From an uncultured archaeon (lineage in GTDB: Archaea; Asgardarchaeota; Thorarchaeia; Thorarchaeales; Thorarchaeaceae), in NCBI GenBank assembly GCA_964458565.1, contig CAYWJO010000001.1, positions 191,160 through 255,159 on the forward strand: DNA of 64,000 bases, given 5' to 3'. Of this stretch, positions 47,556-64,000 are shown one piece after another. Numbering within the stretch: position 1 is the first letter of the stretch; every line of letters begins with the position of its first letter. The notes under the pieces were generated by a model. The model did no database searches and was not told the DNA's origin. It saw nothing but the letters and a program-made list of their open reading frames with translations. A program made the position numbers and the translations under genes.

Positions 47556-47595
47556 GTAGAAAATGAAAAAGTGTCTTACAAGGGATGATGATTTC
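47556..47595 (-). repeat. possible highly degenerate copy of the 23S trailer end
   Basis: gtagaaaatgaaaaagtgtcttacaagggatgatgatttc resembles gtaggaaaagaaaatagtctgcagggaatgatgatttttc at 54.74 kb. Confidence 0.35.
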
Positions 47596-47681
47596 CGGGG
47601 ATACATTATTTGTAGTGATTCTTATAAAATCCATATTTCTAGTACAACATATATGGAGGGACAGCAAATAGTTAGAGTGGA

Positions 47682-48650
47682 ATGACAAGTATTATTGAAA
47701 CTACAAACTTGACCAAGATCTTTGGTCACAAGCTCATCGCTGTTAACAACCTGAGCTTGGAAGTAGAGGAAGGTTCAGTTTACGGTTTCCTTGGTCCAAA
47801 TGGAGCGGGAAAAACGACCACGATAAGATTAGTGTTAGGTTTGATAAGACCCACTGCAGGGGAGGTTACAGTCTTTGGAGAGAGGATGCTCCCCAGTTCA
47901 TCTGAACTGCGTAGAAGAATTGGATATCTGCCAACAAATCCAAAACTACCACCGAAGATGACTCCTATAATGTATCTTGATTTTGTAGGAAAATTATTTG
48001 CGCAAAATAAGGACCAACGAACATCGAGGCTGTCAAAACTAATACGATCAGTCGATTTGCTACCCAGTGCTTCAAGAGAGATTAAGGGATTCTCAACTGG
48101 AATGGTAACTCGTCTTGGGCTTGCTGCAGCACTAATGAACGACCCTGATCTACTCATTCTCGATGAACCAACATCAGGTTTAGACCCAACAGGAAGAAAA
48201 TCAACATTAGATTTGATTGAAGAGCTTGATAACAAGACGATATTCGTATCATCTCACATTCTTAGCGATATTGAGAGGATATGCACCCATGTTGGAGTAG
48301 TGAATGAAGGCAAGCTGATCTATTCGGGTCCAATAAAAGAAATGAAGAAGCAGATTCAGAGAAACAGAATCAGATTGGAATTGGATGGTAATTTGGACGA
48401 TTTCTGTGAGAAGTTGAAATCTATTAATTATGTTATGGATGTTGAGAGAAGAGGAGACTTCACAATTGACATTACCTTTGATTCCCAAATCTCAACAATA
48501 ATTGGATTAAAGCAGGTAATTGAGTTACTGTCGGAAACTGAAATAGAGTTGATATCAATCAACTCATCAACGTCACGAATTGAAGATGCATTTTTAGCAT
48601 TACTTGAGGAGGAAGAGTCGCGTGGGTTCCTTAGAGCAGTCGAAGATTAG
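47682..48650 (+). CDS. ABC-2 transporter ATP-binding protein
   Basis: GPNGAGKTT, FSTGM, ILDEPT, SSHIL. Confidence 0.92.
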   Translation: MTSIIETTNLTKIFGHKLIAVNNLSLEVEEGSVYGFLGPNGAGKTTTIRLVLGLIRPTAGEVTVFGERMLPSSSELRRRIGYLPTNPKLPPKMTPIMYLDFVGKLFAQNKDQRTSRLSKLIRSVDLLPSASREIKGFSTGMVTRLGLAAALMNDPDLLILDEPTSGLDPTGRKSTLDLIEELDNKTIFVSSHILSDIERICTHVGVVNEGKLIYSGPIKEMKKQIQRNRIRLELDGNLDDFCEKLKSINYVMDVERRGDFTIDITFDSQISTIIGLKQVIELLSETEIELISINSSTSRIEDAFLALLEEEESRGFLRAVED

Positions 48651-49365
48651 AAGAACTATAATGCCATTTCTAGCCATATTTCAGGCTGATTTAGAGGCAT
48701 TACTAAAATCAAGGATAACATATGGCTGGTTGATAGCGGGAGTATTCCTTCAGGTCATTAGAGTTCTGAGTAACTCCCGAATCACTCCCACATCAGTGAT
48801 CATCCCACTTGGTCTCAATGACTTCATAATCATATGGAGTATGTTGATTATTGGTACAACAGCAAGCACAGTTTCATCAGAAACAGGTGAGCTTGCAGAC
48901 TCTATAATGAGTAAATCTGTAAAGAGACAGGATTACATCTTTGCAAAGTTCGCCTCTAGAATTGTGTATGTAGCCATAATGTATCTGGCAATAACATTGG
49001 TCCTGGTAATAGCATCATTGAGATTAGCTGAGAATGATTATGACATCTATGGATTAGTCGCTGCTATTTTATTCGTGCTGATTGCACTCATCATGTTGAC
49101 ATCTCTTGGTGTTTCACTCAGTACTTTTATTTCAAACTCTGTTATTGCCATAGTGACTCTACTCATTCTTTGGTATTCGATGACTGCCTTCTTTCCATTA
49201 TTAGATATGGAGTTATTATCTCCAAGTAATCTAATTGCTAAGATGCCAGATCTCATACAAGGCGATTGGACAGGTGATAGCTGGATCACTGCGGTAATCT
49301 TTGGATACATCTCAGTTGTCTTCACATTTCTCACTGCTTCCTATTTCACAACCAAGGACCTTTAG
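48604..49365 (+). CDS. ABC-2 transporter permease
   Basis: 6 TM; E.GEL..IMSKSVKR...AKF; ATG at 48661 is the likely start. Confidence 0.85.
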   Translation: MRRKSRVGSLEQSKIRRTIMPFLAIFQADLEALLKSRITYGWLIAGVFLQVIRVLSNSRITPTSVIIPLGLNDFIIIWSMLIIGTTASTVSSETGELADSIMSKSVKRQDYIFAKFASRIVYVAIMYLAITLVLVIASLRLAENDYDIYGLVAAILFVLIALIMLTSLGVSLSTFISNSVIAIVTLLILWYSMTAFFPLLDMELLSPSNLIAKMPDLIQGDWTGDSWITAVIFGYISVVFTFLTASYFTTKDL

Positions 49366-49469
49366 GACTGGGAAGTGGCATTTCAGGTCCATTGTGACAA
49401 TATAGTGAAGGGGAGATTGCTAAGTCCCAATCTATCAGAGACATTGCTATTTTTCTGATGATTGCATAA

Positions 49470-49775
49470 TCATAATGGAGAAGACAGAGAATTGTATCTA
49501 TCAAATCGAATGCGTAGGATATTGTATTTTCTGAAAGATAGATACAAAAGTACTGCACCAACCATCCCGATACATATAAGAATTAGGATACCCAATGGAG
49601 AATCGTATAGAGTAAGAAATGTGATGTATGTCATATAACTTGCGAAGATTAAGATGACCAGCGAGATAATTACTTCTAGAGAGGAAATCTGCTCCTCTTC
49701 ATGACCGCTCTCATCACCATTAATTTGAGCACTCACCATAATGTTCCCTATGTTTCTCGTAATGGAAGTTTCCAA
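49470..49775 (-). CDS. small 2-TM protein
   Basis: two hydrophobic helices; starts just past repeat 49817. Confidence 0.5.
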   Translation of the reverse strand: METSITRNIGNIMVSAQINGDESGHEEEQISSLEVIISLVILIFASYMTYITFLTLYDSPLGILILICIGMVGAVLLYLSFRKYNILRIRFDRYNSLSSPL

Positions 49776-49816
49776 ATTAAATTCATCTAAGGTCCATCAA
49801 AAATCAAAAACAAGAA

Positions 49817-49879
49817 ATAGTCCACAGAGGATGATGATTTTCTCAGACACTCGCGTTCTCATGCATACTCTAACAACTC
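49817..49879 (-). repeat. 23S trailer repeat copy 1
   Basis: atagtccacagaggatgatgattttctcagacactcgcgttctcatgcatactctaacaactc aligns with 63797-63863. Confidence 0.9.
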
Positions 49880-49938
49880 CACGAATCTATTTTCTAATCG
49901 AGCGATGTATTTATTCAGACTGGTGTTGAATATCTCAT

Positions 49939-50283
49939 GTGGAAATCAAGACAGTCAGATGCAATTGGTGCGGAAAACCCGAAACAGAATGGAATACCAA
50001 AATTCGCTGGAAAAGCAGAGGATATAGATACTGCTCAGCTAGATGCTTTGCCGCTGCAGAATATCAAGCTCATATTGCTATGGCAATTTGTTCAATTCCA
50101 ATTCTCTCGTTACTTGCAGTTAATCTTGTATTCATCCTACTGTCGGATCAGTCTTTGTTCTATCTTGTAGTAGAAATATGGGTCGTGGGTATTATATTCA
50201 CATATGCAGGAAGTTGTATGTACATGATTTCTCTTGGAAAAAACGAACGACAAGAGAAAGAGAGAGATTCTTCCTTATTGTAG
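49939..50283 (+). CDS. small protein with treble-clef-like Zn motif and two TMs
   Basis: CNWCGK...YRYCSARC; stop codon lies in repeat copy 2. Confidence 0.65.
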   Translation: MEIKTVRCNWCGKPETEWNTKIRWKSRGYRYCSARCFAAAEYQAHIAMAICSIPILSLLAVNLVFILLSDQSLFYLVVEIWVVGIIFTYAGSCMYMISLGKNERQEKERDSSLL

Positions 50284-50330
50284 AAAATTAGTAAAGACAG
50301 TCCTCAGAGGATGAGATGTTTTTCTCGCGT
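50277..50330 (-). repeat. 23S trailer repeat copy 2 (degenerate)
   Basis: attgtagaaaattagtaaagacagtcctcagaggatgagatgtttttctc vs attgtagaaaataaagatagtccacagatgatgatgacttttctc at 63781. Confidence 0.8.
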
Positions 50331-50346
50331 CAAATGAAACGATATT

Positions 50347-50631
50347 TTATGCTAGCCACTCCTCCGGACCTTGTTCACTCTCGATTCGTTTGTGGAACAG
50401 GTATTGATCAACACCTGCAAGCGCGATTAAAATCATGAGTAGAAATGGATATACTTTAACAATTGTTCCAATCAACCCCATTGATAGATATGCGATGTAT
50501 GCATCTACTAATAAGAGCAGTACAACAATTATTATTGAAGCCACGTGGCTTTTCCTTCTAATAACAAGATACAGAATAGCTAAGAGTATAAGTAATGAAT
50601 GAAGTGGTGCAAGTGTCGTTATTATAGTCAT
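50347..50631 (-). CDS. small 3-TM protein downstream of the zinc protease
   Basis: hydrophobic 94-aa ORF with GAGGA upstream. Confidence 0.65.
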   Translation of the reverse strand: MTIITTLAPLHSLLILLAILYLVIRRKSHVASIIIVVLLLLVDAYIAYLSMGLIGTIVKVYPFLLMILIALAGVDQYLFHKRIESEQGPEEWLA

Positions 50632-50670
50632 TTTAATTCCTCAAGTAGAGGGGTATTTCTACCCCTCATA

Positions 50671-51584
50671 TCATCTAGAGTGCTTGAATAAGTTTGGACC
50701 CATCACATCTTGGTTATTTTGGCACAGAGTACTGGAATATGGGAAAGGTGCATTATAAAATAAGGCTTGATAATCCATGATATCAAATGAGTAAAGAGTA
50801 TCGGAAACATCATAGTTGTGACATATCTCGTGAGCAACTGCCGTCCAAGCTCCGAGGTATCCCCAGATAGGATAGAACCCCCAACTCCACCCCGAATCCT
50901 GATGAAGCGTAGAGCCCCACATTGCACAGCTGGTAGTGCGAACGAGGACGATATTTCCCTTAATCCAAGCACATCCTGCATAATCTGTAGGAGTCAAATC
51001 TGTATCACCAGTAAACATCACAAGAATATCATGATATGAGCCATGAGCATCGAAATCCTCTCCTAATTTATTCTCATGACGACCATAATTCGTCCAGTCT
51101 CCTGATACTTGATGAGTCCACCACCATTGATAAGCCCAATATAAACAGTAAGAGGTGAAATCATCACCCTGATACGAATACAACGGGTCATTGTATGGTA
51201 GACCCTGATTATCTCTTGGACCATTTGCATCATAGTTCTTCCAAGTCCAATCCCAACTGAAGATAATATCCTTGTTTGGCCAGTATTGGTCTTCAAAATA
51301 GTTCAAGGCATCAACAATATCCTCACACACTTCATCAAAGTCCATGAAATATAATCGTCCATCTTCAAAGTCATCCTTTGCAGCTTTATCATACATGAAC
51401 CATAAGTCAACATATCGTGTAATGGTTCGTGTTTCATCTTCCTGAAATGACTAATCAATTTCTTCCTCAACCTGTTGAAAGATGCTATTGATAGTATCAA
51501 TATCAACAGAAGGTGATTGAATAGCAGGGGGAGGTAGTCTATGATATATGGAAACTAGTATGAGCTGTTCATAGCTAAAGAAAA
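50671..51584 (-). pseudogene. zincin metalloprotease, 5'-truncated with an in-frame TAG
   Basis: AHEICHNY...DIMDY in 50671-51396; frame stays open upstream except TAG at 51451-51453 and reaches repeat copy 3 without an ATG. Confidence 0.6.
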
Positions 51585-51622
51585 ATAGTCCACAGATGAT
51601 GACAACTCCACTCTGACATGCG
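51585..51622 (-). repeat. 23S trailer repeat copy 3
   Basis: atagtccacagatgatgacaactccactctgacatgcg vs atagtccacagatgatgatgacttttctctgacacgtgcg. Confidence 0.8.
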
Positions 51623-51940
51623 TAACTACGCGCTAATATTCATGCTTGTATGCATGATAATGCATAATAATTACAAATGGATAAAACATAAAAAGGTACA
51701 TGGGATAAATATATGATGATCTTTCAAGTCACTACACGTATTCTCTTAAATGTAATCTAACCTGGAGAATAAATTTGTTCAATGAGTAGATGTATTATCA
51801 TCTAGAAGAGTTTCGTGATAATGAAGTGTATATTCAACACACTCTTTCGAATTCATGGGGAGAAGATAACTATTTATAACAATATATCGCCTCTACCGAA
51901 CAAGACTACTATATTATGTGAGGTTTTCATGGAATGAGGG

Positions 51941-52858
51941 ATGATAACGTCAGTCATTGAGGTATATAACCTGTATAAATCATTCAACGGAGTTCAGGCA
52001 CTCAATGGCCTCAATTTGAAGATTGGTGAAGGTGTCTTTGGTTTTATAGGTCCTAATGGCGCTGGAAAGACAACACTCCTTCGCATCCTTCTGGGTCTAA
52101 TCACACCAGACTCTGGGAATGCAAAAGTACTTGGATTTGATATTCAGGGACAGTCTTTGGAGATACGGAAGAGCATTGGTATCCTTCACGAACGAACAAC
52201 ATTCCCTGAACAGATCACACCACTCCATTATCTGAGAAATGCTATCAGGCTCTATGGAAGTAGCAAAGATCCCGAAAAGCTCATTGCAAGCGTAAATCTG
52301 ACAAAACAAAAGAATCAGAAGATAAAGGGGCTCTCTGCAGGCATGAAGCAGAGGCTTGGTCTGGCTCAATCACTTGCAGGAAATCCACGTCTGATCATCC
52401 TTGATGAACCTACATCAAATCTAGACGTGGCAAGTCGTGATGAGGTCATAGACATCATCTTCAATCTTCACACCACAGAACGCATATCATTCTTTGTAGC
52501 ATCACATATCCTGTCAGAGCTCGAACGAATCTGTCACAATGTTGGTTTCATCAACGAAGGAGTGCTATTAGAACAAGGTTCTGTGCGGGACATAATAACC
52601 AAACATACATCGAATCTACTTAAGGTCAATACTCCGGAGCCAACCTTGGTATCGCAACATGTTACTGGCATCTCAGGAATTGTTGGGACACGCATCACAG
52701 GTTCAAGCCAAGTCGTTGTCCGAGTTGAACCCTCGATGAAGGCTGAGAGCAAGAAACAGATTCAGGAAATCCTCAAGAACGACAATATTCCCTTCTATGG
52801 GATATCAGAAGATGTTGGGTCGCTGGAGGATGCGTTTCGAGATATAATGAGGGGTTAG
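51941..52858 (+). CDS. ABC-2 transporter ATP-binding protein, paralogue of 59280-60203
   Basis: GPNGAGKTT, LSAGMKQR, ILDEPTSNLDV, SHILSE. Confidence 0.92.
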   Translation: MITSVIEVYNLYKSFNGVQALNGLNLKIGEGVFGFIGPNGAGKTTLLRILLGLITPDSGNAKVLGFDIQGQSLEIRKSIGILHERTTFPEQITPLHYLRNAIRLYGSSKDPEKLIASVNLTKQKNQKIKGLSAGMKQRLGLAQSLAGNPRLIILDEPTSNLDVASRDEVIDIIFNLHTTERISFFVASHILSELERICHNVGFINEGVLLEQGSVRDIITKHTSNLLKVNTPEPTLVSQHVTGISGIVGTRITGSSQVVVRVEPSMKAESKKQIQEILKNDNIPFYGISEDVGSLEDAFRDIMRG

Positions 52859-52861
52859 ATA

Positions 52862-53656
52862 ATGAGGAAGAATCTGCGTGCTATCATTGCGATAGAGTTT
52901 GAGAATATGGCATACTTTCCAATCCTAGAGGGAATCATCTGCTTACTTGTGTTCTTTTGTTTTTCAGCACTCACGGCAAGTTTCGCACAGGACTTCGAAA
53001 TAATCACAGGGAGTGTGTATAATGGAACAACAATAGAAACTGATATTCTTGAAGACATCCAGAGGTTAAATATTCAACAAGCAGTAAACCCATTGCAGGC
53101 CCTCTCAGTTGCTTACTTCTTCTTTGTTCCATTGTTGAGTACTCTAACGATCACAAGACCTATTGAGGATGGGACTCTTAGGGCCTATCTCTCATTCCCA
53201 GTATCCAGATCATCCATTCTCATGGTCAAGTTCCTCCTGGTCAATCTGATTCTCTGGGTGACATCCACAGGTAGCTGGATAATGGTGGTTGCACTCTTAT
53301 TACCTGGCTATCAGCAGTATCTAAGTTTGATAGTCTGGAGTCTTGTACTCCTTCTCAACTGCATGGTGATAACATCCACCTGTTTTTTGATTTCGATGCT
53401 ATCAAAACAGAGTGGAACATCGCTGTTCATAGGGTTGGGATTGTGGTATGTTCTCACAGTGTTGGCATCCAGTTATAACACTCCAATTCAACTCAGGGGT
53501 CTTTTCTTTCCTGCTATTATAGTCTGGTTATCGGTACAATATGGGTCCTCCTATGTGTTAACAGGTGAGCTCATTCTACCAATTCTTGGAGCGATTGCCA
53601 TAGTCATACTTGCCTACTCTGCGTGTCACATCGTATTTAAGAAAATGGAGGTTTAA
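52862..53656 (+). CDS. ABC-2 permease, paralogue of 60724-61527
   Basis: EDGTLRAYLSFPVSR; 6 TM. Confidence 0.85.
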   Translation: MRKNLRAIIAIEFENMAYFPILEGIICLLVFFCFSALTASFAQDFEIITGSVYNGTTIETDILEDIQRLNIQQAVNPLQALSVAYFFFVPLLSTLTITRPIEDGTLRAYLSFPVSRSSILMVKFLLVNLILWVTSTGSWIMVVALLLPGYQQYLSLIVWSLVLLLNCMVITSTCFLISMLSKQSGTSLFIGLGLWYVLTVLASSYNTPIQLRGLFFPAIIVWLSVQYGSSYVLTGELILPILGAIAIVILAYSACHIVFKKMEV

Positions 53657-53659
53657 CAG

Positions 53660-54142
53660 GTGAGAATTGGAAGAGCATTGATCTTGATTGGAATTGTGAT
53701 GATTGCCGCTTCCCTTTTGGGAGGGAGTGGGAGGGGTGGAGGTGTCAATGTAAGATATGGTGAGTGTGGGGGGCAGGTATTCAAAGCATATGGAAATGTA
53801 GTAGTGGAGGCAGAGGAGTTCTATAACCGATCATTCTCGATATACATTCTCACGTGGTCGAGCTTTCAATACATCCTTGAGAATGGAAGCCTTGAAGATG
53901 TTGATCCTGTTGCTATTTTTGAGAAAGTTGATGGATCTGTTGAAACTATCGTTGAGTTATCAGGAACGGGTATCTATGCCATTTTGTTCACGCCATACTT
54001 TGATGAAATAATACTCATCGATTTTCAAGTCATTCAAGCCACACCAAGAACAGGAATATTACTACCTGGGATTGGCGTCGTGATGATTGGGATTGTCGTG
54101 GTAGTATTGTCAGTACTATCAAAATGGAGGTATAGTAGATAA
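53660..54142 (+). CDS. 2-TM accessory protein with extracellular domain, paralogue of 60207-60722
   Basis: N.SFS(I/V)YIL, G.Y.I and Q..PR shared with 60207. Confidence 0.7.
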   Translation: MRIGRALILIGIVMIAASLLGGSGRGGGVNVRYGECGGQVFKAYGNVVVEAEEFYNRSFSIYILTWSSFQYILENGSLEDVDPVAIFEKVDGSVETIVELSGTGIYAILFTPYFDEIILIDFQVIQATPRTGILLPGIGVVMIGIVVVVLSVLSKWRYSR

Positions 54143-54317
54143 TAAGACCATTATTACTCTTTAGCATCCTTGAAATTAAATCTTGAGAAATTCCTGCTGT
54201 AATCATAATCCTTCTTTCGATGATAAGATAAAAAATAAAAGCTGGGCACTCTTTTTATTTACTCTCATTTGATAGATGGATTATAATCACTCCTAATGAG
54301 GGTAGGAGAATATTGTA

Positions 54318-54755
54318 ATGATGAATGTAAAGAGGCTAGTACCAATGTTAGGCTTCGTGCTATTCATGGGCTTTTTGCCAGCTCTAGCACAAGGCACTAC
54401 GGTTTCTGATCATTATGACGAAAAGGATACAGATTTTATTGGTGATGGATGGTACTATCATTCTGTCAGTAAGGTTACTGGCAATATCAAGCTCGACCAT
54501 GGGCAAACCATTGGCAACGCCTATTGTACGATTACATTGAGAGAACAGATTACTACACCGACAGGGGAAGACCATTACTATATCAACATATTTTGTCGTT
54601 ATCGTACATGGTTTCAAATTGCTGGAATGTTTGGTAGTACGTTTGATATGACCGTATCACTTCAATTATTAGATAATGCACTTGGAGTGGATGCTGAAGA
54701 AACAGGGATTACGGAGGATGATGATTATTCTCAAATCTGTAGGAAAAGAAAATAG
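54318..54755 (+). CDS. secreted protein whose C-terminus and stop come from repeat copy 4 (probably truncated)
   Basis: signal peptide ...FLPALAQG; final CRKRK* encoded by tgtaggaaaagaaaatag of the repeat. Confidence 0.65.
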   Translation: MMNVKRLVPMLGFVLFMGFLPALAQGTTVSDHYDEKDTDFIGDGWYYHSVSKVTGNIKLDHGQTIGNAYCTITLREQITTPTGEDHYYINIFCRYRTWFQIAGMFGSTFDMTVSLQLLDNALGVDAEETGITEDDDYSQICRKRK

Positions 54756-54878
54756 TCTGCAGGGAATGATGATTTTTCTCAGACACTCGCGTTCTCACAT
54801 TATACTCCAGCAACTCTAGGTACTGTGCGAGCCACACTTTTAGTCTGCACGCCTCGGACATTAGTAGCGGTGAGCTGA
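54738..54878 (-). repeat. 23S 3' end plus trailer repeat copy 4
   Basis: 54810-54878 is identical over 69 nt to 63857-63925, including the terminal 23S sequence. Confidence 0.97.
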
Positions 54879-55128
54879 GGATTATAACTTCCAATATTAA
54901 TGATGATTAGCGGTAAGATCAATAAAAATGGAGAATTGAGTAACTAATTCGTCAAGACAATACTATTGCTATTTATACAAAAGAAGGAACAACATTAGAT
55001 GCCCTATCAATAATTGCATCTCACATGTATAATAGAGCAATAATCTATCTTTAAATGATATAAAATACTAAGAATAATGAGTCTTCACATCAATACAACT
55101 TAAATTGTTAATTGGAGCTTATTGAAAA

Positions 55129-57903
55129 GTGAACAGAAGTCGTAATGCAATTGCATTTATAGTTCTAATAATCATGCTATATTCTGTTGACAGTTTTCAT
55201 ATCATTCAATCAAACTCGAGAAGTCACGCACCTCTTATAATTAGCAGAGATTCGTTTAGTTTGTTCATACAAAATATGGGTCAGATTAAAACACCTAATA
55301 CAAAATATTATGCATATACTGATGATGGAATGATTACATTTACAAATGATAGTGTAGTATTCTATCAAAGATTCACGAATAATACAGCCATATTAAATTT
55401 AGATTTATTGAAATGTGGACCCGTTGGAATTGATGAAATTACTAGAAATATCGGATATTTCATAAACTCAAATGAGAATTACACTGGATGCAAGGCATAT
55501 AGATACATAATATATCCTCTGCCATCCTCTGAAGAAGTTCTACTTTTTTTCATGTCCTCAGAAGGATTGCATCACGAATTCTTGGATACAGCTAATATTA
55601 GAGCCAAAATTCAAACTTCTAACGCAAATCGAGATACCGCATCTGCAAATATTCAACAAACTTCACTAGCGAAGGACATAGCCTTATTCGAATCAAAATT
55701 GCATAATTTCAGCATCTCGGAGTCTTCTACAAATAACTATCTTATCTCCTCCTCATTGTTTGGTGGGGGTAATGAAGACATCGGAGAAGATGTCACAGTT
55801 GATGCATATGGCGATATCTATATAACTGGAAAAACGGAATCGATTGATTTTCCTGCCTATAATGGAATAGATTATGATAATAACGGACCTTCAGATTGTT
55901 TTGTAATAAAGATGAACTCAACTGGAAACGGATTGATATTTGCTACATACATAGGTGGTTCATCAGCAGATGGAGGATATACTATCGATGTGGATGCTTT
56001 TGGTTGCGTGTATATTGGAGGAGTTACAAACTCTCCTGATTTTCCCATACGGAATTCCTTTGATTCATCATATAATGGAGATCTTGATTGTTTTATATTG
56101 AAGCTAAATGCATCTGGTAATGAGATTTTATTTTCTACATATCTTGGAGGAACTGATTATGATAGACTTGCTGAAATTACATTAGATTCAAATCAAAATA
56201 TCATTGCTACAGGTCTTACTAGCTCAAACGATTTTCCATTGATTAATGAATCAAACAATACATATTCTGGAAATGGGGATTGTTTTATCACGCAATTATC
56301 ATTCAATGGTACATCTTTATTATACTCAGGAATGTTTGGCGGATCTGAAGTTGATACTGGTAGTGATTTAGTTATAGATAAAAATGGTACAATTTATGTA
56401 ACAGGTACTACGCGTTCATCTGATTTTCCAGTTTTAAACGCCATAGATATCTCACTAAGTGGTTACAGTGATGCGTTCATTGTTGTCATAGATGAATTTC
56501 AAGCACTTGAGTTTTCCACTTATTATGGAGGAAATTCGTATGAGAGTGGTACATCTCTAGCCTTTGATTTAGAGGGATCTGTAATCATAGCTGGAGAAAC
56601 GAAATCTTCTGATTTCCCATTATTGAATCCGTTTGACGATACATTGGACAATGATGAATATGATGGATTTGTAGCGAAATTGAATTTGAATGATATGAAT
56701 CTGATTTATTCATCATATATTGGTGGTTCAGGGATAGATAGTGTTGAATCTATACTCTTAGATGCTGCATCCAATATATATATCGTAGGAACCACATCAT
56801 CCTCTGATTTTCAGTCATCATCGTCTTTTGATGATACATTCAATGGCATAAATGATGGATTTCTCATGAAATTATCTTCCAATGGAAGTAATTTGTTATA
56901 TTCGACATTCATCGGGGGCTCAGGGGGGGATTCGTGTAGTTCTATGTCGTTTGGAGATTCTGGATCCATATGGGTCACAGGCAGCACATGGTCTGAAGAC
57001 TTCCTAACAGCAAATTCATCTTTCGATGAATACCGGGGTGGAACCTCAGATTGTTTTCTACTTGGGATACGAGATACAACGGATTCTGACGGGGACCTCC
57101 TCCCTGATTGGTGGGAGTGTGAATATCAATTGAATATGTACTACAACGACTCTAAGGAAGATTCAGATGATGACAATTTAACGAATCTTGATGAGTTTAT
57201 TATAGGTACAAATCCCTTATACAATGACTCGGATTTTGATTGGATGCCAGACGGATGGGAGTATCTTTATGGGCTTGATGTTCTCAAAGATGACTCAGGA
57301 GATGATCCTGATGATGATGGCCTAACAAATTATATGGAATATGTACATAATACAATGCCGTTCATTAATGATACGGACTCTGATTTGATACCTGATGGAT
57401 GGGAAGTCCTGCATGGGCTCAATCCTTTACTGAACGACTCATACAATGATCCTGATGATGACAACTTATCAAACCTTAATGAATTCTATCTAGGCACACT
57501 TCCTCTGAATGATGACTCCGACTTTGACCAAATGCCGGACGGATGGGAATATAACATTGGATTAAATCCATTGATGCAAGATGCGTATGGTGATCCTGAT
57601 TCTGACTTGCTTTCAAACCTCTTGGAATATAATCATGGCACTAATCCATTTATCTCGGACACTGATTTTGATGGGATGAGTGATAAATGGGAGGTGGAGC
57701 TCGGATTCGACCCGATAGATCCCAATTTTACAATCTATCAGTATCTTGTGTATAATATTGTCGGAATCATTTTCATTGTTACAATTGGATTTGACCTGCT
57801 CCTCGCTAGATATCTATTGTTAGCCTTCAATAAATCTGATAAGAAAAAGCATGAAGCCCTTGTGAGAAAAGAAATGCACATTTTGTTGGAAGAAGATAGA
57901 TAA
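55129..57903 (+). CDS. membrane-anchored surface protein with SBBP beta-propeller repeats and Asp-rich Ca-binding repeats
   Basis: about seven repeats of YIGG...D....I..D..G.IY.TG.T.S.DFP; DSDxDx(L/M)PDGWE...GLNP repeats; N- and C-terminal hydrophobic helices. Confidence 0.88.
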   Translation: MNRSRNAIAFIVLIIMLYSVDSFHIIQSNSRSHAPLIISRDSFSLFIQNMGQIKTPNTKYYAYTDDGMITFTNDSVVFYQRFTNNTAILNLDLLKCGPVGIDEITRNIGYFINSNENYTGCKAYRYIIYPLPSSEEVLLFFMSSEGLHHEFLDTANIRAKIQTSNANRDTASANIQQTSLAKDIALFESKLHNFSISESSTNNYLISSSLFGGGNEDIGEDVTVDAYGDIYITGKTESIDFPAYNGIDYDNNGPSDCFVIKMNSTGNGLIFATYIGGSSADGGYTIDVDAFGCVYIGGVTNSPDFPIRNSFDSSYNGDLDCFILKLNASGNEILFSTYLGGTDYDRLAEITLDSNQNIIATGLTSSNDFPLINESNNTYSGNGDCFITQLSFNGTSLLYSGMFGGSEVDTGSDLVIDKNGTIYVTGTTRSSDFPVLNAIDISLSGYSDAFIVVIDEFQALEFSTYYGGNSYESGTSLAFDLEGSVIIAGETKSSDFPLLNPFDDTLDNDEYDGFVAKLNLNDMNLIYSSYIGGSGIDSVESILLDAASNIYIVGTTSSSDFQSSSSFDDTFNGINDGFLMKLSSNGSNLLYSTFIGGSGGDSCSSMSFGDSGSIWVTGSTWSEDFLTANSSFDEYRGGTSDCFLLGIRDTTDSDGDLLPDWWECEYQLNMYYNDSKEDSDDDNLTNLDEFIIGTNPLYNDSDFDWMPDGWEYLYGLDVLKDDSGDDPDDDGLTNYMEYVHNTMPFINDTDSDLIPDGWEVLHGLNPLLNDSYNDPDDDNLSNLNEFYLGTLPLNDDSDFDQMPDGWEYNIGLNPLMQDAYGDPDSDLLSNLLEYNHGTNPFISDTDFDGMSDKWEVELGFDPIDPNFTIYQYLVYNIVGIIFIVTIGFDLLLARYLLLAFNKSDKKKHEALVRKEMHILLEEDR

Positions 57904-58007
57904 CTATTACTATAAATTTGCATCATCTTAGCATTCTTTCGCCGCTTTTTCTAATTCGGACTTTAAATTCAATCTCGGGAACTAAATCACATTATAGGAA
58001 GATAAAG

Positions 58008-58385
58008 ATGAAGGAATACAGGAAAACATCAACTCTATTAACTGCAGTCACGTTATTTTTGCTATTTATTACAACGAATCAATTAATGGTCTTAGCAAAT
58101 GAAGACCCTAGTGATACAGGTGTTCAAAAATGGATGGAAATTAATCATCTACATGGATTGGGATATAAAGGAGATGGTGTTACAATAGCCATTATCGACA
58201 CAGGATGTATCTATCATGATGATCTTAATAGTACCTACGAAACCGAACTCACCCAATATTGTGAGGTAGATAGTGAGGGTTCAATCAGTCGGACAACATT
58301 ATGGTCTAGTCCAATTGTTGGAGAGAGTACTAACGAAACAATACAAGGTACTGTGCGAGCCATGCTTTTAGTCTGTATGCCTTAG
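58008..58385 (+). pseudogene. subtilisin-like (S8) peptidase, truncated by repeat copy 5
   Basis: signal-like N-terminus; GYKGDGVTIAIIDTG catalytic-Asp motif; no His or Ser motifs; last 13 codons are repeat-derived. Confidence 0.8.
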
Positions 58386-58424
58386 ACATTAGTAATGATA
58401 AGGTAAATACCTCGCCAAAGCTTG
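58346..58424 (-). repeat. 23S 3' end plus partial trailer repeat copy 5
   Basis: aggtactgtgcgagccatgcttttagtctgtatgccttagacattagt...aatacctcgccaaagcttg aligns with 63865-63943. Confidence 0.92.
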
Positions 58425-58485
58425 ATTTATTTGGATAGTAGCAAATAATAAAATTGAAGACGATATTGATACTACTAAAGAGAAT

Positions 58486-58800
58486 GTGATTAAAATGACC
58501 TCTGCAATCGATATTCCATCAAAGGAAATTCTATCGGAATTTTGCGGAAGGCATCATATCCGTAAACTCTCGATTTTTGGCTCAGCCCTAAGGGACGACT
58601 TTGGTCCTGAGAGTGATATAGACATCCTAATTGAGTTTGAAACAGGATATACACCTGGATTCTTTGGGTTCATTGAGATTCAGGATGAGTTATCCGAACT
58701 TTTTGGAAACAAGGTTGACTTACGGACACCTTCAGATCTTAGTAAATACTTTCGGGAGAGAGTACTAAAGGAAGCTGAGGTTCAGTATATTGCAAGATGA
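58486..58800 (+). CDS. mntA: MNT (minimal nucleotidyltransferase) antitoxin
   Basis: IFGSALRDDF...SDIDILIEF, L..LFG.KVDL. Confidence 0.9.
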   Translation: MIKMTSAIDIPSKEILSEFCGRHHIRKLSIFGSALRDDFGPESDIDILIEFETGYTPGFFGFIEIQDELSELFGNKVDLRTPSDLSKYFRERVLKEAEVQYIAR

Positions 58801-59146
58801 TATTATACGTCTTCAACATATGTTGGATGCTGTAAACGAGATTTTAGAATTCACCGATGGTAAATCACGATCTGACTTGGATGATATACGAGTGCTTGCT
58901 CTTGCCCTTGTCAAATTACTTGAAATCATAGGTGAAGCAGCATCAGGGATTTCGAAAGTAACCAAAGATGAACATCCTGAACTACCTTGGAAACAAATGA
59001 TTGGAATGAGAAACCGTCTAATTCATGGATATTTCGATATAGACCTAGATATTGTTTGGCAAACTGTTGATATGGATTTACCACCTCTCAAGATTAAATT
59101 GGAGAGCATTCTTCGACAGGTTGAAAATTCCGTAAAACAAGAATAG
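58790..59146 (+). CDS. hepT: HepT/DUF86 HEPN ribonuclease toxin
   Basis: LEIIGEAA, PWKQMIGMRNRLIHGYF (RX4HXY); overlaps mntA; stop lies in repeat copy 6. Confidence 0.9.
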   Translation: MQDDIIRLQHMLDAVNEILEFTDGKSRSDLDDIRVLALALVKLLEIIGEAASGISKVTKDEHPELPWKQMIGMRNRLIHGYFDIDLDIVWQTVDMDLPPLKIKLESILRQVENSVKQE

Positions 59147-59255
59147 TCCACAGAGGATGATGTTTTCTCAGACGTTTGCGTTCTTAACTATACTCCAGCA
59201 ACTCTAGGTACTGTGCGAGCCACACTTTTAGTCTGCACGTTTCGATAATAATAGC
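59143..59255 (-). repeat. 23S 3' end plus trailer repeat copy 6
   Basis: 59198-59239 is identical over 42 nt to 63857-63898, then degenerate tcgataataatagcgatgaattga. Confidence 0.95.
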
Positions 59256-59279
59256 GATGAATTGATCTGGAACTTTGAT

Positions 59280-60203
59280 TCACACCGTTTTATCGGATAT
59301 TATAGACTTGTAGGTTTCATCAAGTGTATCAGCTACTTCAAAAGCATAAATACACAAACCAAATTCTTCAGCTATTTGCCTAATCATCTCTTTAGTATCG
59401 TTACATGTTGCAGGTTCTATTTTAAGAGTTACAGTATTAATCCCAGAAATGGTTGCTCTGATAACAGTTGGTATGTCTTGAACAACCTCGAGGAGCTTTC
59501 TTGAATCTGAAGTAACAATTCTAAAACTTGATTCAGTATACTTTTTGATTATTTCACGAGTTTCTCCGACCTCAATAATCCTGCCCCGATTTATGAAACC
59601 TACATGATTACATGCTCTTTCGATTTCTGACAGAATATGTGAGGAGATATAGAAGGACATCCCTTCGTCTTGATGTAGGTTAATAATAAGCTGAATCAAA
59701 TCCTCACGACCATCCACATCAAGGTTTGATGTGGGTTCATCTAGAAACACAACCTCAGGATTTCCGATTATAGCCTGAGCAATTCCCAGCCGCTGATACA
59801 TTCCCGCAGAAAGATTACCAATTGTCCTATTTCGTGCATAATGTAAATCAACATTTTTAAGTACTTTATCAGGATTACTTGTACTTCCATAAAGATTCGC
59901 AATTCGTGTAAGATATTTGAAAGGTGTCATATTTGTAGGAAAATATGGTTTTTCATGAAGTATACCCACACGACTACGAATGGCTAACGTTTGGTTGTTG
60001 ATGTCAAAACCCAGAATCATCCCCGTCCCAGCATCGGGTTTTATAAGATTGAATAAAATACGCAATAATGTTGTCTTTCCTGCTCCATTAGGTCCTATTA
60101 GTCCAAAAATCCCCTTTTTGACATCAAAGCTGATTCCATCAAGAGCAACTACTTCATTGAAACGTTTTTTTATAGATGAAATAGAAATAACAGGTTCGTT
60201 CAT
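59280..60203 (-). CDS. ABC-2 transporter ATP-binding protein
   Basis: GPNGAGKTT, LSAGMYQR, FLDEPTSNLDV. Confidence 0.92.
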   Translation of the reverse strand: MNEPVISISSIKKRFNEVVALDGISFDVKKGIFGLIGPNGAGKTTLLRILFNLIKPDAGTGMILGFDINNQTLAIRSRVGILHEKPYFPTNMTPFKYLTRIANLYGSTSNPDKVLKNVDLHYARNRTIGNLSAGMYQRLGIAQAIIGNPEVVFLDEPTSNLDVDGREDLIQLIINLHQDEGMSFYISSHILSEIERACNHVGFINRGRIIEVGETREIIKKYTESSFRIVTSDSRKLLEVVQDIPTVIRATISGINTVTLKIEPATCNDTKEMIRQIAEEFGLCIYAFEVADTLDETYKSIISDKTV

Positions 60204-60206
60204 TTT

Positions 60207-60722
60207 TTATTCCACATCCATCACGTTTACTTCGCCTAATTCAGAAGTGAGTCGAAATTTATTCTGCAAAACATAAAGAGGTATACTAATTGACAATAGA
60301 ACAATACTTGATACATAATATGTTATCCTAGGAATGACCTGAGCAATACGATATCTGACACTAATAGAATAGTTCATGTCTGTTGTTATGACGATACCAT
60401 ACCATCCTGAATGAGGTGTTTTTAATATCATCTGAATTTGTGTTACATTTGCAGTAACAAAAAATGGAGATGTGCCATTAAGCGATTTATTTGATAAAAT
60501 ATGATAAGAGTCAACCTCGGAAAGAATATACACCGAGAATGATTCATTGATTCTTGACTCCATATGCAGAGAAACACCATCGTTAATAAACAGAAACCTA
60601 ACTGTATAGTTGTTCTTTGTAACCTGCATACTGCTTCCACGAGAACTAGTAGGTAATATGGATACGATAAGAAGTGTAACTCCAATCAGCAGGAAGAATT
60701 TAGTAATACGCACCTGAATCAC
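60207..60722 (-). CDS. 2-TM accessory protein with extracellular domain
   Basis: N- and C-terminal hydrophobic helices, several NxS/T sequons; similar to 53660. Confidence 0.7.
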   Translation of the reverse strand: MIQVRITKFFLLIGVTLLIVSILPTSSRGSSMQVTKNNYTVRFLFINDGVSLHMESRINESFSVYILSEVDSYHILSNKSLNGTSPFFVTANVTQIQMILKTPHSGWYGIVITTDMNYSISVRYRIAQVIPRITYYVSSIVLLSISIPLYVLQNKFRLTSELGEVNVMDVE

Positions 60723-60723
60723 C

Positions 60724-61527
60724 TCAATTTATTTCCACTTGACGAAAAACCAGCAAGCTACTAATTATCATGATTATCGTAATCAGAAAGAGAATGCAAT
60801 ATGAACCAATTATATCTCCTACAACGAAATCCGTGCTATAAGGAGAAAGGAAAGAACTCATAGCAAGAAGAGGATTTGATAAAGCTCTAATAATTTTAGG
60901 AAGCTCATACATATTGAAAATCCATTGAGGAAAAAGAAACCAAATTAACATACCAGTAAAAGCAGTAGTTATTGATTTTCTTGAAATGCAAGCAATAAGA
61001 ATACAGACTGATACAATTACAGAAACGTATATCCAAATGCCAATTATTACTAGAACTATAAAAGAAAAATGTAAACTACTCCAGAAGCTCACAAGACTTC
61101 CTATTATAAAAAATGATGTTAGAGTAACGCCAATAGGTATCACAACAAGAAATAATCTTGAAAATAGGAGAGTTTGTCGACTGATTGGATATGAAAGAAG
61201 AGTACGAAATGAGCCATCATCAAAACTTTGAGCGAATGTAAATGCAATGAGAAGTGGAACAATCAGAGCAATCATAGAAGCAATTGAATATGTATACATC
61301 TGAGTAACAGAATATAATGTCATCTCTAGATCTTCTGAGTTCTCTAGGGCTATTTGTGTTGTATTTAGAGGAAATTCAGTTGTATAGGAGGCAGAAACAA
61401 GAGGATTGAGGAATAAGAAAGGGATAAGAGATACGAATACGAAAATAATAGTGATGATCTCATGTATTGGATATCTAAACGTACTATCATTTTCAAGATG
61501 AATTATATCACTTAGCTTTGCACTCAA
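60724..61527 (-). CDS. ABC-2 permease
   Basis: DDGSFRTLLSYPISR; 6 TM. Confidence 0.85.
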   Translation of the reverse strand: MSAKLSDIIHLENDSTFRYPIHEIITIIFVFVSLIPFLFLNPLVSASYTTEFPLNTTQIALENSEDLEMTLYSVTQMYTYSIASMIALIVPLLIAFTFAQSFDDGSFRTLLSYPISRQTLLFSRLFLVVIPIGVTLTSFFIIGSLVSFWSSLHFSFIVLVIIGIWIYVSVIVSVCILIACISRKSITTAFTGMLIWFLFPQWIFNMYELPKIIRALSNPLLAMSSFLSPYSTDFVVGDIIGSYCILFLITIIMIISSLLVFRQVEIN

Positions 61528-61721
61528 TTCTCACAAGCTCCTATTCAAATTTAAATTACTATATAGATGTTAAAACTTTCTAGTAAAGGATTTTGGTTTT
61601 CAAATCTTGTTCATGATTAAAGTCCATCTGTTTAGTTGAATTGCCCGCGAGTGTGAAACTTCAAATTATGGTAATATATATATGTATGTTTGATTAAAGT
61701 AGTATTTAGGAGTTTGAAGAT

Positions 61722-62366
61722 ATGACTATGATGAGTGCATATCAGAAAAGATGGGTTTTCTTAATCATTTTACTAACAATGGTGGTAAATGTATCATATA
61801 TACCATTAAGTATACATACTCCAGTAATAGAGAGAGTCTTTAATGTAAGTGGTTCTCAATCAGGAACCTTTGATTACACAGATGATTCCACTGGAGCCAT
61901 ATGGTGGTTATCATATGTAGATGACAGTGGTCTAATGAAAATGTGTGGTGATTCTCATTATCCTAATTGGTTTGGAAGTTATAGTAGACTTACTGTTGGT
62001 TCCCTTGTCACTGTTAACGAGCCATTGAAGGTGAGAATAGGATTTTATGCTACCCTTAATGCAAAGATACTTGAAGGATTTCCTGGAACTGTATGGATAA
62101 AGGTATTTGTAACACTTCTTGATGAATCGTACAATCAGATTGATTACAAACGTCTTCTTTTCAAAGAAACAGATTGGACAGGATCAGTTGATTTTACAGG
62201 GTATAAGCACAAACTTGATTCTGAGACCACTCTTCAGCCAAATCATAATTATTATCTTTGTGTTAAATGGGAGGGCTATCTACAATGTACAGGGTATGTA
62301 CATGCAACTGATGGTACAGGTTATGCAGACCTAATAATTTCGCAAATATTGTGGTCGTTCTATTAA
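61722..62366 (+). CDS. secreted/anchored protein of unknown family, paralogue 1
   Basis: N-terminal hydrophobic helix; KVRIG..., LLDESYNQID, ETTLQPNHNYYLCV. Confidence 0.75.
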   Translation: MTMMSAYQKRWVFLIILLTMVVNVSYIPLSIHTPVIERVFNVSGSQSGTFDYTDDSTGAIWWLSYVDDSGLMKMCGDSHYPNWFGSYSRLTVGSLVTVNEPLKVRIGFYATLNAKILEGFPGTVWIKVFVTLLDESYNQIDYKRLLFKETDWTGSVDFTGYKHKLDSETTLQPNHNYYLCVKWEGYLQCTGYVHATDGTGYADLIISQILWSFY

Positions 62367-62399
62367 TCATTTATTGATATGGCTTGGCGGTGAATATAC

Positions 62400-63047
62400 T
62401 TGATACACAAGAAAACAGAATTAGTAATCATAACTCTCATTTCCCTGTGTTTAATATTTCCAATTCCTAGCAATAATGTGAGTCTACCGAATCACTCATA
62501 CCTGCCAGCATTTGAATGGGATAATGCACCTTGGGACAAGACTGTGATACAGGAACAACCATTTTGGTGGGATTTGAGAGTTTATGATCAATATAAAATG
62601 TATATGAGAGGTGTTTCAAACCCACTTAATCTACTCGGAAGCAAATCGTTTATCTACTTTGGATTTGAGGTCCAAGTTGATACAGCTAAGAAAGTCAAAA
62701 TTGGAGCATATGGTTTGTTGAATGCTTTTATAATCTCAGGAACTCCAGGCAGTGTTTGGATTAAGATATCAGCAGTTTTGTGTGATGAAACCATGAATCC
62801 AATAGATCAGCATCAACTCTTCAAACGTTCAAGAGCAAATGGTGCAAATTGGACAGGACGAAATGTAGTAATTAATGATGATTTTGACGTGTATAAACTG
62901 GACTATGAAACAACTTTGCAGCCAGGGCATAAGTACTATGTATGTGTTCGATTAGAAGGATGGTTGTGTTATTGGAGTCAGATATATGGAATAAATAATA
63001 ATTTTGCACAGTTTCATGTGTCCTGCATAATGTGGGAGTTTTATTAA
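62400..63047 (+). CDS. secreted/anchored protein of unknown family, paralogue 2
   Basis: KVKIG..., LCDETMNPID, ETTLQPGHKYYVCV. Confidence 0.75.
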   Translation: MIHKKTELVIITLISLCLIFPIPSNNVSLPNHSYLPAFEWDNAPWDKTVIQEQPFWWDLRVYDQYKMYMRGVSNPLNLLGSKSFIYFGFEVQVDTAKKVKIGAYGLLNAFIISGTPGSVWIKISAVLCDETMNPIDQHQLFKRSRANGANWTGRNVVINDDFDVYKLDYETTLQPGHKYYVCVRLEGWLCYWSQIYGINNNFAQFHVSCIMWEFY

Positions 63048-63141
63048 GTTGCAATAAGCAATGCAAAATTAAATTCCTCATGATATTGGTCTAGTTTAAT
63101 AAATTTTGAACACTTAGTGATAAGGAGGTGTTACATATTAG

Positions 63142-63741
63142 ATGGAAAGATTGGGTACAAAGATCAAAGCTGTGTTGGTATTAGCAGGATTATGTTTCAG
63201 TTTATGGACTTTATGTGAATTACTAGCACCAAGGGTTATATCAGTCGATGTTTATAATGAGAACCGAGGAGTATTCATTATTTCAAATGTGAATCAAACA
63301 TCAAAAGAGATATCAATCGAGGGGCATCATGATCTCTTCACGTTACCAAGAGCTTGTTATGCTCAATACATAAGTGATTTTCCGCCTCCACATCAAGGTA
63401 AGGTTAGATTTGAAGTTGAATGGAATCTAACGGGAAAAATTATTGCTGGAAAACTAAGTGAAGCTAGTGTAGTGGTTTCGGTTTTGCTGTTGGATACAAC
63501 TAAGAATACGTTGGATATGAATCAGATTTATAGCATAAACGTATATTCTGATACCTTAGAAATTAGCATTCATAATTCGAATACTGGTTACTTCAAGTAC
63601 AACACTACAGTATATCCTCAATTTCTATATTATCTCGCAATTCGACTTCATGTTACTCTCTCTGGAGCATCATCATTCACCAGTATCGATGGAGATATTC
63701 CTGCAATTCTTACAGTACAAAGTATTGAGGGTTTTTTGTAG
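63142..63741 (+). CDS. secreted/anchored protein of unknown family, divergent paralogue 3
   Basis: AGGAGGTG upstream; KVRF..., LLDTTKNTLD, NTTVYPQFLYYLAI. Confidence 0.7.
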   Translation: MERLGTKIKAVLVLAGLCFSLWTLCELLAPRVISVDVYNENRGVFIISNVNQTSKEISIEGHHDLFTLPRACYAQYISDFPPPHQGKVRFEVEWNLTGKIIAGKLSEASVVVSVLLLDTTKNTLDMNQIYSINVYSDTLEISIHNSNTGYFKYNTTVYPQFLYYLAIRLHVTLSGASSFTSIDGDIPAILTVQSIEGFL

Positions 63742-63780
63742 AATATGAATACATGAATATTGCCCTGAAAAATAATCTCC

Positions 63781-63890
63781 ATTGTAGAAAATAAAGATAG
63801 TCCACAGATGATGATGACTTTTCTCTGACACGTGCGTTCTCACTCATATACTCCTGGCAACTCTAGGTACTGTGCGAGCCACACTTTTAG
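63781..63890 (-). other. 23S rRNA 3' trailer ending in a T-rich terminator-like tract; master copy of the repeat
   Basis: directly follows the 23S end; minus strand ends ...gtggactatctttattttctacaat. Confidence 0.75.
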
Positions 63891-64000
63891 TCTGCACGCC
63901 TCGGACATTAGTAGCGGTGAGCTGAATACCTCGCCGAAGCTTGGTACTTACACCCCCGCCCTATTCACCTTGTCTTCTACAAGAGTCCTCGTTTCCAGAC
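63891..64000 (-). rRNA. rrl: 23S rRNA, 3'-terminal ~110 nt (gene continues beyond the window; exact end approximate)
   Basis: minus strand GGACTCTTGTAGAAGACAAGGTGAATAGGGCGGGGGTGTAAG...TTCAGCTCACCGCTACTAATGTCCGAG fits the conserved archaeal LSU 3' end (GTAGAAGAC...ATAGG..GGGGTGTAAG...TTCAGC...TACTAA). Confidence 0.9.

Follow-up and report, generated by a model that had tools for sequence, protein, structure and literature searches.

Displaced copies of the 23S rRNA gene tail at the joints of a strain-variable gene array in an Asgard archaeon

The stretch of DNA analysed here (the window, 64 kb) belongs to the genome G000, a Thorarchaeota (Asgard archaeon) MAG of 3.7 Mb in 93 contigs with 5% contamination, and the data throughout are metagenomic short-read assemblies. 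The window stops at a contig end within the 23S rRNA gene, into which the public contigs L070, L064 and L119 reach about 2.0 kb, 0.4 kb and 0.27 kb deeper, respectively. A whole-genome Rfam search of G000 for 16S and 23S found no gene, only fragments at contig ends, and a motif search for the 16S 3' end returned none in G000. Cofolding of the 23S trailer with the 23S leader (contig C26) gave 72 intermolecular pairs across 63798-63896 with a dG of -108.5 kcal/mol, compared with -85 ± 4 kcal/mol for shuffled trailers, about 6 sd better. The tail unit consists of the 23S tail (up to 55 nt), the entire 3' strand of the processing stem and the T-run behind it. On its own, neither strand of the unit folds better than shuffled sequences (z +0.46 and +0.45). 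A C/D-box or K-turn was considered for the trailer stretch GATGATGA...CTGA and rejected, as its flanks are unpaired and the stretch is part of the leader-trailer stem.

Table 1. Features at the 23S-proximal end of the window, with the evidence for each.
Feature	Positions	Strand	Content	Evidence
23S rRNA gene 3' end	63889-64000	minus		Rfam LSU_rRNA_archaea RF02540, model positions 2875-2987, 71.7 bits
23S trailer	63783-63888	minus	3' strand of long processing stem (63798-63888), T-rich run (63783-63797)	
R1	63781-63943	minus	working tail beside 23S body	reference copy for searches
Block A	59266-63780	minus, plus	ABC-2 transporter trio (59280-61527, minus); three secreted paralogues (61722-63741, plus)	Pfam; G+C 0.344
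R2	59128-59265	minus	displaced tail, 23S part degenerate	82%, E 5e-28; nhmmer 1.6e-37
Block B	58425-59127	plus	MNT (58486-58800) and HepT (58790-59146), toxin-antitoxin pair	PF01909, PF01934
R3	58337-58424	minus	displaced copy	84%, E 1.5e-17; nhmmer positions 80-156
Block C	54897-58336	plus	SBBP beta-propeller surface protein (55129-57903); S8 subtilase fragment	PF06739, 2.7e-31; G+C 0.353
R4	54737-54896	minus	displaced tail	87%, E 4e-43
Block D	51625-54736	plus	ABC-2 trio (51941-54142); 145-aa protein (54318-54755)	Pfam
R5	51567-51624	minus	displaced copy, distal trailer part only	E 7e-6; nhmmer 1.8e-8
Block E	49904-51566	plus, minus	three small ORFs: 114 aa (plus), 94 aa and 241 aa (minus)	
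R7	49805-49903	minus	displaced copy, trailer only; outermost supported copy	E 3e-10; nhmmer 1.2e-15
ABC-2 pair region	47553-49487	plus	ABC-2 pair (47682-49365); no supported tail copies as bounds	Pfam

Copies of the working tail (R1) were sought by blastn in the whole genome, and an nhmmer profile search recovered the identical set of six copies in the window. An earlier note on this DNA had counted eight; six of these are significant by both methods, and the other two (50277-50330 and 47556-47595) are at chance level: neither blastn nor nhmmer detects them at E ≤ 1, and they lack the 22-nt core motif even when 5 mismatches are allowed, a tolerance that already gives hits at unrelated genomic sites. 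G000 carries ten copies in total at three loci, namely six in the window, one 241 kb upstream (G000:C1:13206-13350) and three on the 15-kb contig C64, all in the same direction within each locus. Unlike a MITE, the repeat is neither scattered in both orientations nor furnished with terminal inverted repeats, the alignment of the copies showing no inverted termini. As had been claimed, only the three copies nearest to the rRNA gene (R2, R3 and R4) keep 23S sequence, R5 and R7 being trailer alone, and the 69-nt identity of R4 with the working tail is exact (54810-54878 = 63857-63925). The nhmmer alignments place the distal start at the same position in eight of the ten copies and show scattered ends on the 23S side. 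The two copies that lack the distal part are R3 and C64:4717-4778; R3 holds only the 23S part and the proximal trailer, and in place of the rest stands the end of a truncated subtilase gene.

Between the copies lie blocks of one to six genes on both strands, which encode surface proteins, ABC-2 exporters together with small secreted proteins, and the toxin-antitoxin pair MNT-HepT. The S8 subtilase fragment of Block C (57918-58385) has an IAIIDTG motif, matches only positions 1-26 of PF00082 (E 0.027) and ends within R3, where the gene is truncated at an illegitimate joint. None of the Block E ORFs matched a Pfam family above cut-off, and look-ups for the proteins at 50671-51396, 45881-47539 and 51941-52858 added no context. 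The ABC-2 pair of the outermost region is replaced by 79 nt in a relative of about 94% identity, as seen in one bridging contig (run X11). The G+C content of the proximal blocks is 0.344-0.371, compared with a genome mean of 0.409 (sd 0.018, 3-kb windows), and this lower value of the three proximal blocks is the sole hint of the newest cargo lying beside the rRNA gene.

The window breaks off in 23S and the genome is in many contigs with some contamination, and either could point to an assembly artefact or chimera beside a collapsed rRNA repeat, but the copies are only 82-87% alike and are therefore not collapsible duplicates, the depth of run X2 is even over array and backbone, and all junctions from 54318 to 23S recur in public assemblies that were built separately from G000's own (L057, L064, L065, L066, L070, L115-L117, L121 and L125), some of which come from other samples, studies and years and a few of which may come from the source sample of G000. 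We regard an artefact as extremely improbable.

Public assemblies at least 99.7% identical across the rRNA-proximal block were compared as strain variants, and their block content differs with breakpoints inside the repeats. In L057, a block X replaces Block D to the left of R4, and in L058 Blocks C and B are absent (4.4 kb) and a hybrid repeat, whose left part is of R4' type and whose right part is of R2 type, has its crossover near the middle of the trailer. After 2 kb of 23S, L070 enters a tail in which R1 is interrupted by an R2-type patch (an R1/R2/R1 mosaic), the patch starting near 63796. In the 4.7-kb contig L060, the end of Block A is joined to its start through an R1-left/R2-right hybrid whose crossover falls in a 42-nt identical block; the contig begins and ends with the same 20 nt, and counted with only one of these it is 4657 nt long, compared with an R2-R1 period of 4654. 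This single contig represents either a circle or a tandem duplication, and its closure through a hybrid repeat is in keeping with the earlier note's reading of the array. R2 is the partner in the hybrids of both L058 and L060. Block A also occurs at ≥99.7% identity in public contigs with other neighbours, and the junction of Block D with R4 recurs in L065 and L066. A joint of run X5 that goes back from 63796 to 59143 was considered as a second circle and is better read as an R2-type patch as in L070; L059 and L063, also considered as circles, merely end in repeats. Parts of the array with no cover in runs X6 and X11 were left out of the evidence, and a metagenome scan with a 41-nt block returned one contig only.

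Blocks are therefore lost and exchanged by recombination between tail copies, and are possibly also looped out in this way. L060, L058 and L070 provide at least three distinct crossover positions, and crossovers placed so variably within the repeat point to homologous recombination and not to one fixed att core; their spread fits host homologous recombination and gene conversion. These data uphold the view that the locus is an array of cassette-like blocks with the 3' end of 23S as its anchor, and the outcomes that the earlier note had named as refuting, a repeat dispersed like a MITE or relatives without indels at the repeats, did not arise. They do not support an attachment site of the integrase kind at the rRNA end, given the several crossover positions and the failure to find a recombinase. 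Nor do they show that the newest cargo lies next to the rRNA gene, as had been proposed: every strain difference seen concerns an inner copy, and more distant copies are not less similar to the working tail, R4 being closer to R1 than R2 is.

Direct repeats of the 3' end of stable-RNA genes are the classic footprint of integrase-mediated accretion (Williams 2002, as cited in PMC8813620), and the repeats here are of this kind. An unrecognised site-specific recombinase encoded elsewhere might insert and excise cassettes at the 23S tail, the mosaics being later gene conversion, in the manner of integrase-less satellites of tRNA-gene islands, SCC-type arrays at rlmH or integron cassettes. Pfam scans found no integrase, resolvase or reverse transcriptase within the window, in agreement with the earlier note, and no PF00589, PF00239 or PF00078 in the arrays, including contig C64 for PF00589 and the array ORFs of G000, G012, G019 and G003 for integrases. 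Across whole genomes, PF00589 is absent from G012, G019 and G001 and PF00239 from G000, G012 and G001, and G012, a genome of the same family that is 98% complete and bears 32 displaced copies, has neither a tyrosine or serine recombinase nor a reverse transcriptase. The genome search did return one PF00589 gene in G000, on contig C53 and outside the arrays, which counts in favour of a recombinase, and one of a new family would escape profile searches. The several crossover positions, the ragged 23S-side ends of the copies and the limitation of the families that recur across arrays to ABC-2 trios, SBBP proteins and MNT-HepT all speak against it. The mosaics leave room for a recombinase at the capture step, because existing copies recombine whatever made them; overall, we consider such an enzyme unlikely, if still deserving of attention.

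A distal end fixed at the T-run together with a variable 23S-side end would also be expected if the 3' part of the pre-rRNA had been reverse-transcribed and inserted, since such copies would share their 3' end and be truncated to varying extents at the 5' end. Yet PF00078 is absent from five array-bearing genomes, the strict co-orientation and clustering of the copies are unlike retroposition, and the strains differ by whole blocks swapped inside repeats and not by added repeats, which makes an RNA origin very improbable. Several plus-strand genes stop at or a few nt from the distal edge of a copy (for example at 54755 and 59146), the copies carry T-runs, and leader-paired positions vary about half as often as unpaired ones, a weak signal as the copies are not independent; this could suggest regulatory or terminator modules reused between ordinary, immobile chromosomal genes. 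The orientation of the copies is constant, however, while that of the genes is mixed, many copies are partial, neither strand is structured by itself, and strains 99.7% identical differ in block content at the copies, so that we give this explanation very little weight as well.

Such arrays are also borne by other genomes of the same family. In G012, the 32 displaced copies lie on 7 contigs and are co-oriented within every contig (chance about 2^-25); 12 of the 32 end at one trailer position and their 23S-side ends are scattered. Arrays adjoining 23S were found on contigs of other genera (L048 and L047). No synteny was detected between the upstream genes of the window and the 23S flanks of four other genera, because these relatives are too distant, and cargo proteins common to different genera are at most 72% identical, so no recent inter-genus transfer is visible.

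In light of these data, we read the locus as a strain-variable array of accessory genes behind 23S, whose joints are co-oriented tail copies and which is run by host recombination with entry of circles, and we put the probability of this reading at roughly 0.55. New blocks would enter as DNA circles carrying a tail copy, and such a circle would insert into a resident tail by a single crossover (Campbell type), for which a dedicated recombinase would be unnecessary. Only inserts that rebuild the 23S end, the stem arm and the terminator would keep the rRNA working, and this need for a rebuilt tail would explain the tail unit at every joint. The fixed distal end of the copies would correspond to the end of the conserved functional trailer, and the ragged 23S-side end to an illegitimate joint where the incoming fragment was closed. 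Under homologous recombination, R3 and C64:4717-4778 need additional deletions. No direct insertion event was seen among the strain variants compared, and the first acquisition of a tail copy by a new gene block is something that we purely infer.

More tentatively, and with somewhat less than even confidence, we propose that rRNA gene tails in Asgard archaea, and perhaps the tails of further highly conserved genes, serve as recombinase-free landing pads for tail-bearing circles through host homologous recombination, possibly fed by DNA uptake, with the tail rebuilt for ribosome maturation and portable homology left at every joint. The outcome would be a population-wide library of swappable blocks, parallel to integrons in function and different in principle. 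If host recombination alone drives the array, accessory genes would have a simple and general way of moving within the archaeal lineage that is closest to eukaryotes. The poor assembly of rRNA-flanking regions in Asgard MAGs would also be explained, and the conserved tail would be a handle for fishing the flexible gene pool from metagenomes and could guide the design of integration vectors for Asgard archaea once these are tractable.

To our knowledge, gene capture beside stable-RNA genes has been known only via integrases, and cassette arrays only via integron integrases; our literature searches returned no description of arrays jointed by rRNA tails. At the present locus, cassettes are joined by an rRNA gene end and no integrase is in sight, and population data show the exchange of blocks at the joints. 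As in the tandem islands at tRNA and tmRNA 3' ends, co-oriented displaced 3' ends of a stable-RNA gene bound successive accessory blocks, and each insertion restores a working gene end. Unlike in those islands, the anchor is the 23S rRNA gene and the copy spans a whole processing-stem arm (about 100 nt of trailer), no integrase is found in or near the blocks, crossovers fall at several positions instead of one fixed core, and many blocks are one to four genes without mobility genes.

The attC sites of integrons are imperfect palindromes that form single-strand hairpins and are conserved in structure and not in sequence, whereas the sites here are sequence-conserved rRNA tail copies with no hairpin of their own. 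Integrons and CALINs, including archaeal integrons (Ghaly et al., bioRxiv 10.1101/2022.02.06.479319), share with the array a long row of small unrelated cassettes with a recurring site, toxin-antitoxin cassettes, strain-variable content and a possible circular cassette form. Here, however, there is no IntI beside the array and no attI/Pc platform, and the blocks are operons in both orientations, whereas integron cassettes are mostly single promoterless co-oriented ORFs. The SCC and pseudo-SCC elements at the 3' end of rlmH (orfX) in staphylococci are likewise composite arrays that lie between direct repeats, adjoin the end of a conserved, ribosome-linked gene and include some units with no recombinase of their own, but SCC requires both a Ccr serine recombinase and a fixed core of short length, and neither was found here. 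Finally, the additive flexible genomic islands of marine bacteria and archaea resemble the array as strain-variable hot spots by a conserved gene that are enriched in surface, transporter and defence genes; the array differs in that every joint bears a copy of the tail of the anchor gene, and with it portable homology.

Copies of the 23S rRNA 3' end and trailer (R1; 63781-63943, minus strand) were sought by repeat search, by profile search and by blastn over the complete 3.7-Mb genome. The displaced copies R2, R3, R4, R5 and R7, which the earlier note had described in the orientation of R1, were recovered by each of the three, and the 69-nt exact identity of R4 to R1 was confirmed (54810-54878 = 63857-63925); 23S sequence is retained in R2, R3 and R4, and R5 and R7 consist of trailer alone. 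The window spans 191160-255159 of contig C1 of the source genome, G000, and its right edge is the contig end. Two further copies proposed at 50277 and 47556 could not be detected at E<=1, and as the 22-nt core motif is absent there at a mismatch level already matched by unrelated places, we attribute them to chance.

Features of the array and of its variants (bare coordinates are window positions; C64 is a 15-kb contig of the same genome; blocks lie between tail copies, with A nearest the 23S; L-numbers are public contigs)
Feature	Position	Orientation	Match or content
23S rRNA 3' end, archaeal	63889-64000	minus	Rfam, last 113 model positions
R2	59128-59265	same as R1	82%, E 5e-28
R3	58337-58424	same as R1	84%, E 1.5e-17
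R4	54737-54896	same as R1	87%, E 4e-43
R5	51567-51624	same as R1	E 7e-6
R7	49805-49903	same as R1	E 3e-10
C64 tail copies	169-294; 4717-4778; 4959-5081		
ABC-2 modules	45109-49365; 51941-54142; 59280-61527; C64:10764-14431		
Block A	59266-63780		ABC-2 transporter trio and three secreted paralogues
Block B			MNT-HepT pair
Block C			SBBP beta-propeller surface protein and start of S8 subtilase, truncated inside R3
Block D			second ABC-2 trio and small protein
Block E			three small ORFs, no known family
L057	54751-63911		9.7 kb; left of R4, block X in place of the window's block
L058			tail copy, X, hybrid repeat, block A, R1, 23S; without blocks C and B (4.4 kb)
L060			4677 nt; inside block A, A end, R1-left/R2-right hybrid, A start
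L070			23S (2 kb), then tail R1-type, R2-type (~60 nt), R1-type
L114			four tail copies within 2.6 kb; one small gene in each interval

By profile search, ten tail copies are present genome-wide, six in the window, three on C64 and one at C1:13206-13350, 241 kb upstream on the window's own contig and oriented as the window copies; with just ten copies, the repeat is not dispersed in the manner of a MITE. At both C1:13350 and C64:4718, an SBBP surface-protein gene, preceded by a paralogous F8-family gene, has its stop codon directly against the 23S-side end of the tail copy, so that a single block type (tail, SBBP, F8) recurs at two sites remote from the 23S. Two ABC-2 trios are also found on C64, which could belong to a further array or to a strain variant. 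A tRNA-Sec gene (L017:10653-10739, corresponding to G000:C1:18652-18738; Rfam RF01852, 57.6 bits) is located ~5 kb from the orphan C1 copy.

The 23S 5' end and its leader were found on contig C26, and leader and trailer are predicted to form a duplex of 72 intermolecular pairs spanning 63798-63896, with an energy of -108.5 kcal/mol vs -85 +/- 4 for shuffled trailers; neither strand of the unit, folded alone, does better than its shuffles. Since the trailer pairs with the leader over this stretch, the folding model identifies the repeated unit as the last <=55 nt of the 23S, then all of the 3' strand of its processing stem, and finally the T-rich run that follows. The distal start, on the side away from the 23S, falls at one position in the T-run in eight of the ten copies from the profile search, and the 23S-side ends are scattered. 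Substitutions are about half as frequent at leader-paired as at unpaired positions, in copies that are not independent of one another, a weak hint that the copies may once have worked as trailers. The stem base (63798-63820) carries a plus-strand motif, CAGAGGATGA(A/T)G, that is conserved across many Thorarchaeota genera and may act as a signal for processing or termination; the distal trailer outside it is not conserved across these genera.

Genes of the array occur on both strands. ABC-2 modules, of which there are at least five in this genome and others in the arrays of the relatives G001 and G012, pair an ATPase with a permease and in most cases add a small protein of 160-195 aa without a known family, and the one in block A might form, with its three adjoining secreted paralogues, a module of toxin or export-immunity type. 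The SBBP gene contains three tandem 144-nt repeats (57145-57552, 60-72% alike), a repeated protein module. In one contig of a 2025 marsh metagenome, the ABC-2 pair at 47553-49487 is swapped for 79 nt between flanks that are ~94% identical; the left breakpoint coincides with the proposed faint copy at 47556, where no tail copy is detectable. For the suggestion that the newest cargo lies next to the rRNA, the one hint is the G+C of the three rRNA-nearest blocks (0.344-0.371; 3-kb windows of the genome have a mean of 0.409, sd 0.018 and first percentile of 0.366); every strain difference observed falls at an inner copy, and in sequence R2 is further from R1 than R4 is.

At least half of the sampled words from 52000-61900 are present in ten public runs from several studies, sequencing depth in run X2 is even over array and backbone, and a 2015 marine-sediment run yielded contigs matching 54873-59204 and 59210-63886 with one or two differences, broken at the repeats. 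Variant contigs were found by exact protein look-up, with block A at >=99.7% identity and differing surroundings. Block X, seen in L057 and L058, is the gene of a 231-aa membrane protein absent from the source genome, and in the hybrid repeat of L058 an R4'-type left part is joined to an R2-type right part. The R2-type stretch inside the R1-type tail of L070 is a conversion patch. In L060, the crossover of the hybrid falls within a 42-nt identical block, and because the contig starts and ends with the same 20 nt and the remaining length of 4657 nt compares with an R2-R1 period of 4654, it is, as a single contig, a closed loop, that is, a free circle or a tandem duplication. The window's own junctions recur in L064-L066, L115-L117, L121 and L125, and across all variants block A has the distal part of R1 on one side and the 23S-proximal part of R2 on the other. 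As the earlier note had anticipated, near-identical strains differ in block content with breakpoints within the repeats; the array is genuine, with the 23S tail as its anchor.

Among 40 relatives examined, more than one tail copy was found in several genomes of the same family (G012, G001, G002, G019 and G003), and genome by genome the trailer in the copies is the host's own. In G003 the array adjoins a 23S lying internally on an 81-kb contig (C46), and this 23S has a group I intron (L048:18054-18384; Rfam RF00028, 114 bits). The array of G001 follows the 23S on one contig; this 23S probably carries inserts too, since 660 model positions are stretched over 1458 nt. The tail of G012 was matched 33 times, with 32 displaced copies across seven contigs in a single orientation within every contig (chance ~2^-25); 12 of them share a trailer end position and the 23S-side ends are scattered. 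The relatives' cargo includes LRR and TPR proteins, restriction-modification genes, GNAT acetyltransferases, peptidases, ABC-2 trios and more MNT-HepT pairs, and there is no sign of recent transfer between genera. In a closed Thorarchaeota chromosome (CP070658.1), a 289-nt 23S 3' fragment alone was detected within an 8-kb stretch (L090:3318-3606), with a second tail copy ~900 nt away and no other 23S tail in the chromosome by tail query, reflecting either a very large insert in the gene or an assembly error.

We propose that new blocks come in as circles bearing a tail copy, each of which would join a resident tail through a single crossover. The makeup of the unit would be explained by selection, because a 23S that an insert had split from the stem arm and the terminator would fail to mature, and only inserts that rebuild the unit would survive. 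The fixed distal end of the copies would then mark the point where the conserved function ends, and the ragged 23S-side end the place where an illegitimate joint had closed each incoming fragment. Cut genes at the joints, the S8 fragment at R3 among them, would fit the model as well.

Less probably, a recombinase of unfamiliar family acts on the tails. Tyrosine recombinases (PF00589) are absent from the window, C64, G012, G019 and G001, the only such gene of the source genome being on another contig; no resolvase-type serine recombinase was found in G000, G012 or G001, no reverse transcriptase in five array-bearing genomes, and the only protein families that recur in the arrays are those of the cargo. 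Arrays on rRNA tails were not described in the literature covered by full-text searches, including the main Asgard mobile-element paper (PMC8813620). Crossovers are found at several positions of the repeat and, because blocks are also exchanged inside the repeats, the pattern points to homologous recombination and gene conversion between direct repeats of 100-160 nt, and not to a site-specific enzyme acting at a single core.
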